From: a virus
Taxonomy: Duplodnaviria; Heunggongvirae; Uroviricota; Caudoviricetes
Length of the DNA: 14,230 nucleotides
Virus record (IMG/VR): IMGVR_UViG_2690316076_000003
Reading direction: 5' to 3' (one strand)
How positions within the stretch are numbered: the first letter of the stretch is position 1; every line of letters begins with the position of its first letter. Shown here one piece after another: positions 9,001 through 14,230 of the stretch. The position numbers were made by a program.

Positions 9001-12000
9001 ATCGTCTTGAGGCTCAGAGCTGGGCGCGTCACTACCAGCAGATAGCCCGTGAAGAGAAAGAGGCAGAACTGGCAGACGACATGGAAAAAGGCCTGCCCCA
9101 GCACCTGTTTGAATCGCTATGCATCGGTCATTTGCAACGCCACGGGGCCAGCAAAAAAGCCATTACCCGTGCGTTTGATGACGATGTTGAGTTTCAGGAG
9201 CGCATGGCAGAACACATCCGGTACATGGTTGAAACCATTGCTCACCATCAGGTTGATATTGATTCAGAGGTATAAAACGGATGAGTACAGCACTCGCAAC
9301 GCTGGCAGGGAAGCTGGCTGAACGTGTCGGCATGGATTCTGTCGACCCACAGGAACTGATCACCACTCTTCGCCAGACGGCATTTAAAGGCGATGCCAGC
9401 GATGCGCAGTTCATCGCATTGTTGATCGTCGCCAACCAGTACGGCCTTAATCCGTGGACGAAAGAAATTTACGCCTTCCCTGATAAGCAGAACGGCATCG
9501 TTCCGGTGGTGGGCGTTGATGGCTGGTCCCGCATCATCAATGAAAACCAGCAGTTTGATGGCATGGACTTTGAGCAGGACAATGAATCCTGTACATGCCG
9601 GATTTACCGCAAGGACCGTAATCATCCGATCTGCGTTACCGAATGGATGGATGAATGCCGCCGCGAACCATTCAAAACCCGCGAAGGCAGAGAAATCACG
9701 GGGCCGTGGCAGTCGCATCCTAAACGGATGTTACGGCATAAAGCTATGATTCAGTGTGCCCGTCTGGCCTTCGGATTTGCTGGTATCTATGACAAGGATG
9801 AAGCCGAGCGCATTGTCGAAAATACTGCATACACTGCAGAACGCCAGCCGGAACGCGACATCACTCCGGTTAACGATGAAACCATGCAGGAGATTAACAC
9901 TCTGCTAATCGCCCTGGATAAAACATGGGATGACGACTTATTGCCGCTCTGTTCCCAGATATTTCGCCGCGACATTCGCGCATCGTCAGAACTGACACAG
10001 GCCGAAGCAGTGAAAGCTCTTGGATTCCTGAAACAGAAAGCCACTGAGCAGAAGGTGGCAGCATGACACCGGACATTATCCTGCAGCGTACCGGGATCGA
10101 CGTGAGAGCTGTCGAACAGGGGGATGATGCGTGGCACAAATTACGGCTCGGCGTCATCACAGCTTCAGAAGTTCATAACGTAATAGCAAAACCCCGCTCC
10201 GGAAAAAAGTGGCCTGACATGAAAATGTCCTACTTCCACACCCTGCTTGCTGAGGTTTGCACCGGTGTGGCTCCGGAAGTTAACGCTAAAGCGCTGGCCT
10301 GGGGAAAACAGTACGAGAACGACGCCAGAGCCCTGTTTGAGTTCACTTCCGGCGTGAATGTTACTGAATCACCGATCATCTATCGCGACGAAAGTATGCG
10401 TACCGCCTGCTCTCCAGATGGTTTATGCAGTGACGGCAACGGCCTTGAACTGAAATGCCCGTTTACCTCCCGGGATTTCATGAAGTTCCGGCTCGGTGGT
10501 TTCGAGGCCATAAAGTCGGCTTACATGGCCCAGGTGCAGTACAGCATGTGGGTGACGCGAAAAGATGCCTGGTACTTTGCCAACTATGACCCGCGTATGA
10601 AGCGTGAAGGACTGCATTATGTCGTGGTTGAGCGGGATGAAAAGTACATGGCGGGTTTTGACGAGATGGTGCCGGAGTTCATCGAAAAAATGGACGAGGC
10701 ACTGGCTGAAATTGGTTTTGTATTTGGGGAGCAATGGCGATGAAGCATCCTCACGATAATATCCGGGTAGGTGCGATCACTTTCGTCTACTCCGTTACAA
10801 AGCGAGGCTGGGTATTTCCCGACCTTTCTGTTATCCAAAATCCACTGAAAGCCCAGCGGCTGGCTGAGGAGATAAATAATAAACGAGGGGCTGTATGCAC
10901 AAAGCATCTCCTGTTGAGTTAAGAACGAGCATTGAGATGGCACATAGCCTTGCTCAAATTGGAGTCAGGTTTGTGCCAATACCAGTAGAAACAGACGAAG
11001 AATTTCATACGTTAGCCACATCCCTTTCACAAAAGCTGGAAATGATGGTGGCGAAAGCAGAAGCAGATGAGAGAGACCAGGTATGACAACCACTGAATGC
11101 ATTTTTCTGGCAGCGGGCTTCATATTCTGTGTGCTTATGCTTGCCGACATGGGGCTTGTTCAGTGACACCTCAGCAAGAAAACGCCCTTCGCAGCATTGC
11201 CCGTCAGGCTAATTCTGAAATCAAAAAAGCCAGACAGCAGTTTCCGGATAAAAACGTCGATGACATTTGCCGTAGCGTACTGAAGAAGCACCGCGAAACG
11301 GTAACGCTGATGGGATTCACACCGACTCATTTAAGCCTGGCGATCGGCATGTTAAACGGCGTCTTTAAGGAACGGTGAGCATGAAAAGCAAAATCATCAG
11401 GGAGCTACAGGCTCCTTTTTTATTGTTCGCATTCACCCTCAAGCGTATTAACCAACAATTCAGGGATTAATGGAAGATGGCAGACATCATTGATTCAGCA
11501 TCAGAAATTGAAGAATTACAGCGCAACACAGCAATAAAAATGCGCCGCCTGAACCACCAGGCTATATCTGCCACTCATTGTTGTGAGTGTGGCGATCCCA
11601 TAGATGAGCGAAGACGCCTGGCCGTTCAGGGTTGTCGGACTTGTGCAAGTTGCCAGGAGGATCTGGAACTTATCAGTAAACAGAGAGGTTCGAAGTGAGC
11701 GAAATTAACTAGAAGCCAAAGATAAAATCATCGCTGAGCAGGAGAAAATCGCTAACGGAGAAAAGACAGTAAGTCAGTATATGAAAACCGCATGATATCA
11801 TCAGATAAAAATCGATCGTAAAGCGAAATATTAATACCAGAATAAACGAGTCGAGGTAAATTATATTACCTCGATAAATTAACTAAAACTTGCCCGCTAT
11901 ATACTATCTCATTCAGTATCATCACGCGCGGTCTGTGCATATGTTACTACCGCACCTAATGTATTAATTTTCTTTTCAACATAGATAATATTATCGTACT

Positions 12001-14230
12001 CATAATTGCCATACGGATAGCAAATGCGAATATTCTCATGTAGATCGGGGTCATCCACCTCAGCTCCAGAACAACTTTTTGAACTACCGGAAGTATACCG
12101 ATACGGTGCAACATAAGACGATGTCTCTCCAGGCAAAAAATAAGTTAGTGTTGTAAGGGGTATAATCAGAAAAAATCCAGCAAATATGCACATCCCTGCA
12201 TAAACCTTAAGGTATGCTGACAGACTCTTCCAGCCGCTTTGTTTTACTATCCCCTTCTTAACCCAAAACAGAGATAACAGAAAAGCTATTCCCATGCTAA
12301 ACAGAATGTAATAGTGGGATATACTCTGATTAAGAAACGTGACCCTGTAAATATCTGCCCGCCACCAGAAGAAAAGGAAAATAAAGATCAGGCCTGAAAC
12401 TGTCATGCAAATCAAATAAGGATACGAATCTTTTTTCATGTTTAGCGTCCATAAAATTTTTCCTGCCCCGGACAAATTTACCATCCATTTTTTGCGCAGA
12501 AAATAGCTCATTACTTACTGCACAATAATACACAAAATTGCGTAAATTTTTTGCATGGATTTTAGCTCTTTCAGCCGACGTTTAAGGGGTAAATAGCATT
12601 TCCTAAAAGCAACTGCACCAACCCAACAGAATGAGCTACCGCTTACGTTGAGAGCAAAAAAGTGTATAGCAGCAATGAACAGCATCCTCGCACTGACGAG
12701 GATTTCTTTTATCTGAACTCGCTACGGCGGGTTTTGTTTTATGGAGATGATAAATGCACTTCCGAGTCACAGGTGAATGGAATGGAGAACCATTCAACAG
12801 AGTTATCGAAGCAGAGAACATCAATGACTGCTATGACCACTGGATGATATGGGCGCAGATAGCACATGCAGACGTAACCAATATTCGAATTGAAGAACTG
12901 AAAGAACACCAAGCCGCCTGATGGCGGTTTTTTCTTGCGTGTAATTGCGGAGACTTTGCGATGTACTTGACACTTCAGGAGTGGAACGCACGCCAGCGAC
13001 GCCCAAGAAGCCTTGAAACAGTTCGTCGATGGGTACGCGAGTGCAGGATATTCCCTCCTCCGGTTAAGGATGGAAGAGAGTATCTGTTCCACGAATCAGC
13101 GGTAAAGGTTGACTTAAATCGACCAGTAACAGGTAGCCTTTTGAAGAGGATCAGAAATGGGAAGAAGGCGAAGTCATGAGCGCCGGGATTTACCCCCTAA
13201 CCTTTATATAAGAAACAATGGATATTACTGCTACAGGGACCCAAGGACGGGTAAAGAGTTTGGATTAGGCCGAGACAGGAGGATAGCAATCACTGAAGCA
13301 ATACAGGCCAATATTGAGTTACTCTCAGACAGCGGACGCAAATCACTGATAGACAGAATTAAAGGCGGTGACGCAATCACTCTTCATGTGTGGCTTGACC
13401 GATATGAAACAATCCTCACCGAAAGGGGGATCAGGCCGAAAACTCTACTCGACTACGCCAGCAAAATCAGGGCAATCCGAAGAAAATTGCCGGACAAACC
13501 GCTCACTGACATATCAACGAAAGAAGTGGCAGCAATGCTAAACACCTACGTAGCAGAAGGTAAAGCAGCTTCCGCAAAATTAATCAGGTCAACCCTTGTT
13601 GACGTTTTTCGTGAAGCAATAGCCGAGGGGCATGTGGCAACGAATCCGGTAACAGCAACCCGTACAGCAAAGTCAGAAGTAAGGCGCTCAAGGCTGACAG
13701 CTAATGAGTATGTCGAGATTTACCATGCAGCCGAACCTCTCCCTATCTGGCTAAGGCTGGCGATGGATTTGGCCGTCGTTACAGGGCAGAGAGTCGGCGA
13801 TTTGTGCAGAATGAAATGGTCAGACATAAACGACAACCATCTTCACATTAAACAGAGTAAAACAGGGGCTAAACTCGCCATTCCGCTAACGCTAACGATT
13901 GACGCGCTCAATATCTCATTGGCTGATACACTACAGAAATGCAGGGAGGCCAGCAGCAGTGAAACTATAATCGCATCAAAGCATCACGATCCGCTTTCCC
14001 CGAAAACAGTATCAAAGTATTTTACAAAGGCGAGAAATGCATCTGGCCTCTCATTTGATGGAAACCCGCCAACATTCCATGAACTGCGTAGCCTGTCAGC
14101 GAGGCTATACCGGAACCAGATTGGCGATAAGTTTGCTCAACGTCTTCTCGGGCATAAATCAGATTCAATGGCGGCGCGGTATAGGGACAGCCGTGGACGG
14201 GAATGGGACAAAATTGAAATCGACAAATGA

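Follow-up and report, generated by a model that had tools for sequence, protein, structure and literature searches.

Why would a lambdoid prophage carry, between an orf73-like zinc-finger gene and xis, a gene that faces against its neighbours? The window, a stretch of 14,230 nucleotides, is a lambdoid prophage of the 434 type, with every other sizeable gene, N (about 6800) through int (13157..14230), on the plus strand. A sequence-only reading had pointed to one oppositely oriented, AT-rich frame of 200 codons, followed by a hairpin and encoding a membrane protein, in a region where accessory genes gather. That frame is present and begins with ATG, and the region is AT-rich as described: its GC content is 34-41% between 11700 and 12750, whereas the flanks have 45-51%.

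The conserved gene encodes 176 residues

The frame is indeed open for 200 codons, and the conserved gene within it is shorter. Outside the lambdoid copies, all relatives begin at the equivalent of Met25, and an in-frame stop precedes that methionine by 2-22 codons in each non-lambdoid copy; we therefore place the gene at 176 codons from Met25 (Table 1). The 24-codon extension is open in lambdoid copies only, and both of its substitutions among close alleles are non-synonymous. These first 24 codons very probably lie outside the gene, and comparison with the relatives suggests that they are probably untranslated 5' leader and promoter DNA.

Homologues fall into 74 clusters, and an exhaustive search yielded 61 representatives. 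Since dN/dS for the coding sequence is 0.08-0.15, indicating purifying selection, we regard this as a real gene; its GC content is 39%. Disruption of the frame in close relatives had been named as a sign against the gene; the frames of relatives are intact.

Table 1. Coordinates of the features described in the text, as positions in the window.
Feature	Position	Strand	Remarks
Longest ORF	11909..12511	-	200 aa, ATG start, open throughout
Conserved CDS	11909..12439	-	176 aa plus stop; start ATG 12439..12437, stop 11911..11909
Extension of longest ORF	12440..12511	-	24 codons; contains the candidate -10 element
Transmembrane helix 1	12353..12427	-	Residues 5-29 of the 176-aa protein; AlphaFold2 model, hydropathy
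Transmembrane helix 2	12257..12328	-	Residues 38-61; AlphaFold2 model, hydropathy
Transmembrane helix 3	12137..12235	-	Residues 69-101; AlphaFold2 model, hydropathy
C-terminal five-stranded beta-barrel domain	11912..12136	-	Residues 102-176; predicted periplasmic
Cys123	12073..12071	-	Invariant; beta-barrel domain
Cys140	12022..12020	-	Invariant; beta-barrel domain
Terminator-like hairpin	11851..11874	-	9-bp stem, 6-nt loop, then CUCGUUUAUU; 35 nt downstream of the gene
Candidate extended -10 element TGgTAAATT	12475..12483	-	Ends 35 nt before the ATG; consensus-level inference
Three tandem 10-bp repeats	12519..12546	-	TTTACGCA / TTTGTGTA / ATTGTGCA; upstream of the gene
434-type fill of the lambdoid variable slot	11712..12657		AT-rich; backbone common to Stx and other lambdoid phages on either side
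Mobile cassette	11802..12576	-	About 775 bp; homologous to the copy in E. coli P2-like prophage L021
56-aa ORF, GenBank 'putative membrane protein' (CPT_434_35)	12515..12685	-	Straddles the cassette and backbone junctions
Two tandem terminator-like hairpins (tL4 of M60848 and a second)	12684..12734	+	-21 kcal/mol, z -3.35

The product is a predicted inner-membrane protein with a periplasmic barrel

AlphaFold2 models (pLDDT 86 for the whole protein, 90 for the C-terminal domain) predict three helices and a five-stranded beta-barrel. We read the product as a putative inner-membrane protein with a cytoplasmic N-terminus and a periplasmic barrel that one disulfide would hold. The N-terminal helices noticed earlier are thus retained, as three hydrophobic segments, and so is the abundance of tyrosine toward the C-terminus (by eye, 10 among the final 79 residues); what had been called a tail is a folded beta-barrel domain. 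The loop before helix 3 is rich in lysine and arginine (family mean 3.3 K+R against 0.4 D+E) and is predicted to be cytoplasmic, and from this charge bias and the positive-inside rule we infer that the barrel lies outside the cytoplasm, in the periplasm. Among the closest known systems to the barrel are small OB/cold-shock/DUF1093-type beta-barrels (e.g. PDB 3npp).

The barrel domain bears the motif SCSGAxVxDPxL...IRICYPxGxY. Apart from its two cysteines, which flank the beta2-beta3 hairpin in the predicted models, no residue is invariant in an alignment of 26 family members that extends down to 16% identity, and both the architecture and the cysteine pair are retained in homologues of 16-30% identity. 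Conservation along the protein is lowest in the helices and strong in the predicted periplasmic domain.

Searches of Pfam, NCBIfam, the PDB, and viral structure libraries returned no match to the 176-residue protein, and PADLOC (PADLOC-DB v2.0.0, E up to 1) matched neither this protein nor nine neighbouring hotspot proteins from loci L003, L004, L019, L020, and L022. Clear homology to a characterised protein, which had been raised as a possibility, was not found. We rejected P22 SieA, of types A-C, as a homologue (hhalign probability 0.2%; its motif FxRYPxEAxxFNK is missing from the family alignments), and likewise HK97 gp15 (hhalign 0.8%). A loose resemblance had also been suggested to the membrane protein at 2375..3091 (2375..3133 in our analysis). 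Pairwise and profile alignments speak against it: BLASTP gives E = 0.24, profile-sequence hhalign 0.3%, and profile-profile hhalign 4.3%, the last through hydrophobic helices only. That protein represents a separate family, whose tag, PF27470, is found on no relative of the 176-residue protein.

The gene sits in a mobile cassette within a variable slot

The suggestion that an accessory gene occupies a variable region near xis is borne out by comparison with 933W-type phages: the backbone that the window has in common with them stops at ~11711 and restarts at ~12658. In 933W the slot holds 2.7 kb of pL-direction genes instead, and related lambdoid phages with the same DNA on either side of the slot lack the gene. 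Genes of the lambda and Stx-phage exo-xis region (ea22, ea8.5, orf61, orf63, orf60a, orf73) occupy the same neighbourhood; they are transcribed from pL and influence the lysis-lysogeny decision (PMC3824215, PMC7093339). Unlike them, the 434 gene is antisense to pL, encodes a predicted membrane protein, and is common to non-lambdoid elements.

Within the slot, a block made up of the gene, 137 nt on its upstream side, and 107 nt on its downstream side (hairpin included) aligns with the copy in the P2-like prophage at 75.8% identity over 778 aligned positions. On this alignment, the gene has moved between phage families together with its upstream and downstream DNA. The insertion lies between backbone genes and differs from its surroundings in base composition, as expected of a moron, and the best explanation is a self-contained accessory ('moron') cassette inserted backwards into the slot of a 434-type prophage. 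The ORF annotated as CPT_434_35 has only three homologue clusters, all at least 95% identical, is uncalled by RefSeq in E. coli, and is probably not a gene. The tandem plus-strand hairpins, at the slot's right-hand edge, are part of the backbone and not of the cassette.

The hairpin beyond the gene had been read with a stem of 8 bp; it is there on the minus strand, with one base pair more. It folds at -12.9 kcal/mol (z = -3.07; 2 of 200 shuffles fold equally well) and is followed by a moderately U-rich tail. The P2-like counterpart is weaker (-8 kcal/mol, z -0.71) and is without a U-rich tail; its stem shows one compensatory change from A-T to G-C, as read by eye from the alignment. Since the hairpin lies inside the block common to the 434 and P2-like copies, it has been inherited along with the gene.

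A consensus scan of three contexts found no canonical sigma-70 promoter upstream of the gene. A candidate extended -10 element, TGnTAA(A/T/G)TT, is conserved in position at 35-39 nt upstream of the ATG in the 434 copy, in P2-like copies from E. coli and Salmonella, and in Cedecea. Expression in the lysogen from a promoter of its own, as the earlier reading had proposed, is plausible, since DNA on both sides moved with the gene between phage families. In 434, Met25 is preceded by a weak Shine-Dalgarno sequence. Across the whole window and 40 fetched loci, the tandem repeat motif is found only upstream of this gene, where it may be a regulator site. GenBank annotates the last two repeats as the cII-site consensus TTGT-N6-TTGT (12535..12522); this consensus is short, and the element is also conserved in P2-like prophages that lack cII.

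Relatives occupy a phage-defence hotspot and bacterial chromosomes

P2-like prophages of E. coli, Salmonella (two types), and Klebsiella carry relatives at 78, 70, 58, and 55% identity, each standing alone between the portal gene Q and the replication gene A, which is the gpA-gpQ old/tin hotspot. Rousset et al. 2022 (PMC9122126) show that old/tin and many defence systems with validated activity are found here. Table S5B of that study lists, as a catalogue entry without name or function, 'System #4, 3 TM' with 470 loci, and the 434 protein aligns with its published representative at 52% identity over 168 residues without gaps (E 3e-57). The two have in common three transmembrane helices, the motif CSGAxVDDPDL...ICYPYGxY, a single-gene cargo layout, and the lack of a Pfam domain; they differ in location, System #4 sitting in the P2-like gpA-gpQ slot and the 434 copy in the lambdoid exo-xis variable slot, which is a difference of setting and not of the protein itself. 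By this alignment the 434 protein is a member of the same protein family as System #4, and the family is among the commonest cargoes of the P2-like hotspot. The System #4 motif is absent from Table S2, which holds the systems evaluated by Rousset et al. 2022 (PMC9122126). The hotspot also houses cargo other than defence: roughly one phage in four has a partition system there and ~2% have the CDT toxin. Of eight additional candidates tested only three gave defence (PMC9122126).

A 434-type copy is present in 915 of 5426 complete E. coli genomes (17%), near full length in 911 of them. The copy in O157:H7 Sakai is ECs0804 of prophage Sp3; the gene is intact both in this degraded prophage and in the window's own, which is degraded too. 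Prophages that carry the gene are rich in virulence cargo (nle effectors, cif, lpxR). The family is widespread in Enterobacterales and occurs also in Pseudomonas. In seven Enterobacter species it is a syntenic chromosomal gene with a GC content matching its flanks, and chromosomal members in Klebsiella have host-like GC; in the contexts examined, no conserved neighbour or pathway surrounds the chromosomal members. A literature search for ECs0804 yielded no papers, and the announcement of the 434 genome is silent on the 176-codon gene.

Discussion

The gene is a good candidate for protecting the lysogen against other phages because its relatives fill the anti-phage hotspot of P2-like prophages. 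Our leading reading, to which we assign a probability of roughly 0.4, is of a moron made in the lysogen and acting at the envelope to block the entry of superinfecting phages, a function and a promoter that we infer. In the lysogen, where pL is repressed, nothing would transcribe against the gene and the protein would be made. Acting at the inner membrane and in the periplasm, it would stop superinfecting phages, its conserved barrel probably binding a conserved component of the envelope, or else the apparatus that delivers the incoming DNA, so that genome entry would be blocked. Upon induction, N-antiterminated transcription from pL would run antisense through the gene and shut it off. In favour of this reading, besides the hotspot, stand the retention of the gene in 17% of complete E. 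coli genomes and its intact state in degraded prophages. The strong conservation of the predicted periplasmic domain would be unexpected in an arms race with phage proteins and counts against defence, and chromosomal residence in Enterobacter and Klebsiella suits a general envelope function no less than defence. The missing canonical promoter, the negative PADLOC searches, the lack of homology to SieA or gp15, and the non-defence cargo of the P2 hotspot weigh on the same side.

For the proposed mechanism the closest functional parallel is P22 SieA, a prophage-expressed inner-membrane protein of 162-164 residues that is predicted to cross the membrane three times, is transcribed from a promoter of its own, and alone suffices to block DNA injection (PMC10883804). 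The 434 protein would likewise be a small inner-membrane protein with three helices; however, the conserved motif of SieA is predicted to be cytoplasmic, whereas the conserved part of the 434 protein is the predicted periplasmic, disulfide-bonded beta-barrel. The P2 genes old and tin, which share the slot of the 434-gene relatives and encode unrelated proteins, are accessory phage-exclusion genes that confer immunity to a broad range of phages when cloned together (PMC9122126). Old is a member of the ATPase-TOPRIM nuclease family, unlike the 434 protein. Neither Old nor Tin is known to be a membrane protein. HK97 gp15, annotated as 'moron product', is a textbook moron that has its own terminator; it resembles the 434 gene in encoding a small membrane protein, and differs from it in size (62 aa) and in its place among tail genes. 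In work by Cumby et al., gp15 reportedly excludes superinfecting phage at DNA entry.

A role in host physiology is doubtful but has several observations behind it: the protein might do the same job as its chromosomal orthologues in Enterobacter, Klebsiella, Proteus, and Pseudomonas, for example by modulating some process of the periplasm or inner membrane, tolerance of stress, or host colonisation, and be carried as a lysogenic-conversion factor for the benefit of the host. The syntenic Enterobacter gene, host-like GC there and in Klebsiella, wide occurrence in Enterobacterales and Pseudomonas, strong conservation of the predicted periplasmic domain, the virulence cargo of carrier prophages, and the non-defence cargo of the P2 hotspot all agree with such a role, whereas repeated capture into a slot whose validated cargo is mostly anti-phage, and chromosomal contexts that offer no conserved neighbour or pathway, do not. 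We consider it unlikely that the protein is an abortive-infection effector in which the barrel would sense phage entry and the three-helix bundle would oligomerise, depolarise the membrane, and kill or arrest the infected cell instead of keeping the phage out. Many defence effectors are small multi-pass membrane proteins, and the association with the gpA-gpQ hotspot, whose tables hold several transmembrane cargoes, would suit an effector; but no PADLOC effector model matches, the helices are the part least conserved, and stable chromosomal orthologues together with carriage by 17% of complete E. coli genomes argue against intrinsic toxicity.

Pore-forming colicin immunity genes are of similar size (~175 aa), AT-rich, and standalone, and encode a three-helix inner-membrane architecture. 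By analogy, the 176-residue product, which resembles their products in size, architecture, and AT-richness and has predicted periplasmic exposure, could be an orphan immunity protein, its target being a bacteriocin or contact-dependent toxin that acts on the membrane or in the periplasm. We judge this improbable: no Pfam or NCBIfam immunity family matches, no toxin gene lies near in any context examined, and colicin immunity proteins are not known to have a folded periplasmic beta-barrel such as that predicted here. It is less probable still that the transcript itself is the product, with a cII-activated promoter at TTGT-N6-TTGT giving an antisense RNA against the pL operon while lysogeny is established, as paQ does for Q. 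The GenBank cII-site annotation, the reality of the repeats and their confinement to the spot upstream of the gene, and the convergence of the gene with pL would allow such an RNA. The protein, however, is under strong purifying selection, P2-like prophages without cII retain both the repeats and the gene, plain chromosomal sites retain the gene, and TTGY-N6-TTGY is expected about once per 16 kb per strand, which for a 48-kb genome means several chance occurrences. Finally, the missing canonical promoter and the weak Shine-Dalgarno sequence might recall a chance ORF in AT-rich filler DNA, a reading refuted by the conservation data: selection at the dN/dS of 0.08-0.15 given above and homologues at 16-30% identity that keep the architecture and invariant cysteine pair stand against it, as does the confident structure prediction.

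Returning to envelope defence, we offer a broader proposal only tentatively, as one that probably reaches too far: that the 434 gene and its P2-hotspot relatives may be the founders of a new family of single-protein, envelope-acting superinfection-exclusion systems with a membrane-tethered, disulfide-locked barrel, recruited from a chromosomal Enterobacterales gene and moving as a promoter-gene-terminator cassette between unrelated temperate phages. If this is true, the family would be among the most prevalent phage-resistance determinants in E. coli, with copies in lambdoid prophages of 17% of complete genomes and at 470 P2-hotspot loci.

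Start codon and conservation of the target gene

The sequence-only reading had described a 200-aa, AT-rich ORF that opposes its neighbours between orf73 and xis. This ORF (the target gene) is present; the neighbouring genes from N to int all lie on the plus strand, and the region has 34–41% GC against 45–51% in its flanks. The GenBank annotation of coliphage 434 gives a 188-aa version ("putative membrane protein") and RefSeq a 200-aa version ("hypothetical protein"). A homologue search returned 74 clusters, none with a product name or a Pfam tag, and those with named organisms come from Escherichia, Shigella, Salmonella, Enterobacter, Cedecea and Klebsiella. 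Divergent homologues are 169–180 aa long, and every one begins at a Met equivalent to Met25 of the 200-aa ORF; all non-lambdoid copies carry an in-frame stop 2–22 codons 5' of this position, with no alternative start. Among close lambdoid alleles, the 24-codon extension holds 2 substitutions, both non-synonymous, and the CDS 4 synonymous and 3 non-synonymous changes, small numbers that are only suggestive as to the choice of start. Together, the Met25-equivalent starts, the upstream stops and the allele pattern argue that the gene is the shorter form listed in the table and that the predicted conserved protein has 176 aa, as against the RefSeq and GenBank versions, which corrects the annotated start. 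Between the 434 copy and copies at 58–78% identity, dN/dS is 0.08–0.14, and it reaches up to 0.15 among P2-like copies; the target protein is thus under purifying selection.

Features of the target gene, its surroundings and related loci (helices by residue, other features by nucleotide)
Feature	Sequence	Position	Strand	Remarks
Target ORF, longest form	window	11909..12511	-	200 aa
Target gene, conserved form	window	11909..12439	-	176 aa
Long helix 1	target protein	5-29		AlphaFold2 model
Long helix 2	target protein	38-61		AlphaFold2 model
Long helix 3	target protein	69-101		AlphaFold2 model
Block aligned to P2-like copy	window	12576..11802	-	cassette
Hairpin	window	11874..11851	-	9-bp stem, -12.9 kcal/mol, z -3.07, then CUCGUUUAUU
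TGnTAA(A/T/G)TT element	window	12483..12475		35-39 nt 5' of ATG
Three tandem 10-bp repeats	window	12546..12519		(A/T)TTGTGCA
56-aa ORF	window	12515..12685	-	"putative membrane protein" in GenBank
Two tandem terminator-like hairpins	window	12684..12734	+	jointly -21 kcal/mol, z -3.35
Other membrane protein	window	2375..3133	-	237-238 aa family
O-NinI fusion ORF	window	3991..4647	-	junction ~4229-4233
293-aa ORF	window	7117..7998	+	directly after N; RefSeq hypothetical
cIII thermoregulator RNA element	window	8615..8673	+	Rfam RF01804, 88.5 bits
YafO-family toxin gene	L004	6703-7083	-	adjoins P2-like copy
Klebsiella homologue	L008	6001-6543		chromosomal
Serratia homologue	L016	5001-5510		chromosomal
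ParM/StbB-type partition pair	L021	7068-8343	-	adjoins P2-like copy

Architecture of the protein

AlphaFold2, given a 22-sequence alignment, returned a confident model of the target protein (pLDDT 86) in which three long helices are followed by five strands. The C-terminal 77 residues modelled alone (pLDDT 90) form the same five-stranded barrel, and hydropathy marks the same three segments as the model helices. The Tyr-rich C-terminal part picked out by eye corresponds to this barrel domain. Across the family, K/R residues are enriched at the N-terminus and most strongly in the loop between helices 2 and 3 (3.3 K+R vs 0.4 D+E), a charge bias that by the positive-inside rule predicts an N-in topology with the C-terminal domain in the periplasm. 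In a 26-sequence alignment that takes in Pseudomonas, Proteus, Providencia, Erwinia and Phytobacter and reaches 16% identity, Cys123 and Cys140 are the sole invariant residues. They lie on either side of the beta2-beta3 hairpin and may form a structural disulfide in an exported domain, a bond that is not proven but would agree with the predicted topology. The helices are the variable part of the protein and the barrel the conserved part; the functional part is predicted to be this conserved, putatively periplasmic barrel.

Searches with the target protein against Pfam, NCBIfam and PADLOC gave no match, nor did a profile search against PDB sequences, and Foldseek against viral structures gave nothing at E ≤ 0.001. 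The sole family-library match was PHROG 1416 (function not known), which covers the last 88 residues. When 1.84 billion representatives were searched exhaustively by HMM, only 61 proteins were recovered, almost all of ~170 aa and with the same layout; the 3074-aa protein P0124, with 8 weak repeats matching the profile and no meaningful domains, was taken as spurious. The family was not found in the DefensePredictor supplements by sequence motif or WP accession. Homology to P22 SieA and to HK97 gp15 was ruled out by profile comparison (0.2% and 0.8%, respectively).

A loose likeness to the other membrane protein of the window had also been proposed, and this kinship did not survive comparison. 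The two proteins align by BLASTP at E 0.24; profile against sequence gave 0.3%, and profile against profile gave 4.3%, the latter in the hydrophobic helices only. The other protein belongs to a separate, well-populated family in Enterobacteriaceae with an invariant N-terminal Gly/Trp/Tyr-rich motif, GWGSAYFYGWG.S.YYGF.WW, and is tagged PF27470 (a precomputed tag that our local Pfam copy did not report). In a phage 2B8 record, product names under the match to this region include [quoted passage not shown], which may refer to this or to another gene. In other respects the sequence-only reading was largely sound.

A cassette common to two phage families

BLASTN of the 434 region against an E. coli P2-like copy aligns a block at 75.8% identity that comprises 137 nt 5' of the ATG, the gene, and 107 nt 3' with the hairpin. 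The hairpin had been read as 8 bp; it does follow the gene on the minus strand, with a stem one pair longer. In the P2-like copy it is weaker, although a by-eye reading of the aligned sequences shows a single compensatory change there, from A-T to G-C. The backbone common to 933W and many Stx phages stops at ~11711 and restarts at ~12658, so the 434-specific fill is 947 bp, 775 bp of it cassette. In 933W the slot holds 2.7 kb of genes that all run in the pL direction. With the backbone broken at both edges and alternative contents in 933W, the view of the target gene as an accessory gene in the lambdoid variable slot stands. The data fit a moron: the cassette is foreign in composition, self-contained, set between backbone genes and horizontally shared by temperate phages of two unrelated families. 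Two tandem terminator-like hairpins, the first of them tL4 of M60848 and the second directly after it, mark the right edge of the slot, in backbone DNA common to many lambdoid phages.

The 434 GenBank record also annotates a 56-aa ORF just upstream of the target gene. No diverged homologues of it were found, and it straddles the junctions between backbone, filler and cassette; both observations rule out a two-gene operon, and the ORF is probably a spurious annotation and not a gene.

A simple sigma-70 scan of the upstream DNA in 434 and two P2-like copies found no canonical promoter. The TGnTAA(A/T/G)TT element is shared by 434, Cedecea and the P2-like copies of E. coli and Salmonella. The last two of the three tandem repeats form TTGT-N6-TTGT; within the window and the fetched loci the repeat motif occurs only upstream of the target gene, and by eye it could not be matched to the CRP or Mar-box consensus. 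Because of the conserved element and the repeats, a promoter of its own is plausible but unproven for this gene.

The window from 11700 to 12760 is 100% identical to coliphage 434 (OL657226/OL657227) and nearly identical to phages 2B8 and mEp332. As a whole, the window differs from wild-type 434 in that the N-terminus of replication protein O is joined in frame to the C-terminus of a NinI-type Ser/Thr phosphatase, and therefore the remainder of O, P and most nin genes are deleted. Among 5426 complete E. coli genomes a single one (NZ_CP148385.1) has this junction, within a degraded 434-type prophage that adjoins torS and carries the T3SS effector genes cif, nleH, nleB2 and espJ. The lambda cIII thermoregulator is the sole Rfam match in the window, and the target-gene region has none. 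The 293-aa ORF, in the pL direction, lies where lambda has other accessory genes.

Distribution

A lambdoid, 434-type copy is carried by 915 of 5426 complete E. coli genomes, always on the chromosome and near full length in 911. In all four E. coli genomes inspected, O157:H7 included, the gene lies between a TraR/DksA-type zinc-finger gene and ORF55-xis-int, on the opposite strand. The Sakai copy, ECs0804 of prophage Sp3, is intact, and int, bet and the portal gene there are pseudogenes; a literature search for ECs0804 turned up nothing, and the one paper found for mEp332 concerns qPCR discrimination of lambdoid phages. A "Candidatus Nanosynbacter" MAG includes a 3.5-kb contig (JARKOR010000073.1) that encodes the target protein, the zinc-finger protein and Exo at 97–99% identity to a 434-type E. 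coli prophage, and its assignment is almost certainly binning contamination.

Four relatives in P2-like prophages are 78% (in E. coli), 70% and 58% (both in Salmonella) and 55% (in Klebsiella michiganensis) identical to the 434 protein. Each stands by itself, flanked by portal gene Q on one side and replication gene A on the other, and is oriented like Q and P. Neighbours of P2-like copies vary; one copy adjoins a partition pair and another a YafO-family toxin gene, in agreement with the mixed cargo described for this slot by Rousset et al. (2022; PMC9122126). Nine neighbouring P2-slot proteins were tried against PADLOC for guilt by association, and none matched.

Chromosomal homologues are syntenic in seven Enterobacter species, with the GC content of their flanks, and the Klebsiella chromosomal copy likewise has a host-like GC content. 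The homologue forms an AT-rich islet (38–43% vs 52–61%) in Serratia, Cedecea and Citrobacter, which in Cedecea adjoins an integrase-like remnant; Pantoea megaplasmids also carry the family. The Serratia "plasmid" record evidently represents a piece of chromosome (mltG-tmk-holB-ptsG), in which the homologue follows ptsG at a distance of 235 nt; in Klebsiella, the homologue and a bgl-type PTS EIIBCA operon point away from each other. Some siphophages use PTS permeases as entry factors at the inner membrane; this proximity could be a hint or a coincidence.

Discussion

In P2-like prophages of E. coli, the gpA-gpQ slot (occupied in P2 by old and tin) is a hotspot with 1,650 gene arrangements in 18,150 loci, from which 169 systems were curated and several new anti-phage systems validated (Rousset et al., 2022; PMC9122126). 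"System #4" of Table S5B in that study, listed with no Pfam, 470 occurrences and "3 TM", has a representative 52% identical to the 434 protein (E 3e-57). The family motif was not found in Table S2, the list of evaluated systems, whose sole "3TM" entry is a P4 hydrolase + 3TM system; as far as can be told, the family was catalogued without testing.

Because the family has been repeatedly captured into a slot whose validated cargo is mostly anti-phage, we tentatively prefer an anti-phage role at the envelope, of which blocked genome entry would be the simplest form (probability roughly 0.4). In a lysogen, where pL is repressed, no transcription would oppose the gene in its orientation; upon induction, antiterminated pL transcription would cross it antisense. 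The main rival, somewhat less likely, is an envelope function other than defence, as suggested by the orthologues resident in chromosomes and by how strongly the exposed domain is conserved. Partition systems, in about one phage in four, and CDT toxin, in ~2%, also occupy the hotspot, and only 3 of 8 extra candidates defended against the panel used (Rousset et al., 2022; PMC9122126).

That the protein is an abortive-infection effector is unlikely, and that it is an immunity protein against a toxin is improbable. The GenBank annotation of 434 marks TTGT-N6-TTGT as a cII-site consensus, and the repeats are kept in P2-like prophages without cII; a purely RNA-level or cII-driven role would be very surprising. 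For a reading frame under such selection, an origin as a chance ORF deserves almost no credence.

The target gene was already annotated and its family catalogued, so this is not a new kind of thing; the 434 genome announcement does not discuss the gene, noting no more than that 434 and lambda carry different morons. What is new is the start correction, the domain architecture, the invariant Cys pair, the prevalence figures and the evidence of a candidate promoter-gene-terminator block common to the P2 defence hotspot and the exo-xis slot of lambdoid prophages. The gene is a directly testable candidate of moderate interest. Although phage 434 is among the founding models of molecular genetics, this gene carries neither a name nor an assigned function; the cassette is in about one sixth of complete E. 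coli genomes, O157:H7 among them, and in the best-validated of the prophage defence hotspots relatives of the gene rank fourth among cargoes by frequency. One mobile cassette ties the two slots together and offers a concrete, cheap test of function. Such a test could reveal a new mechanism of exclusion at the envelope, or show that a very frequent "hotspot" cargo does not defend, which, if true, would bear on guilt-by-association defence discovery.
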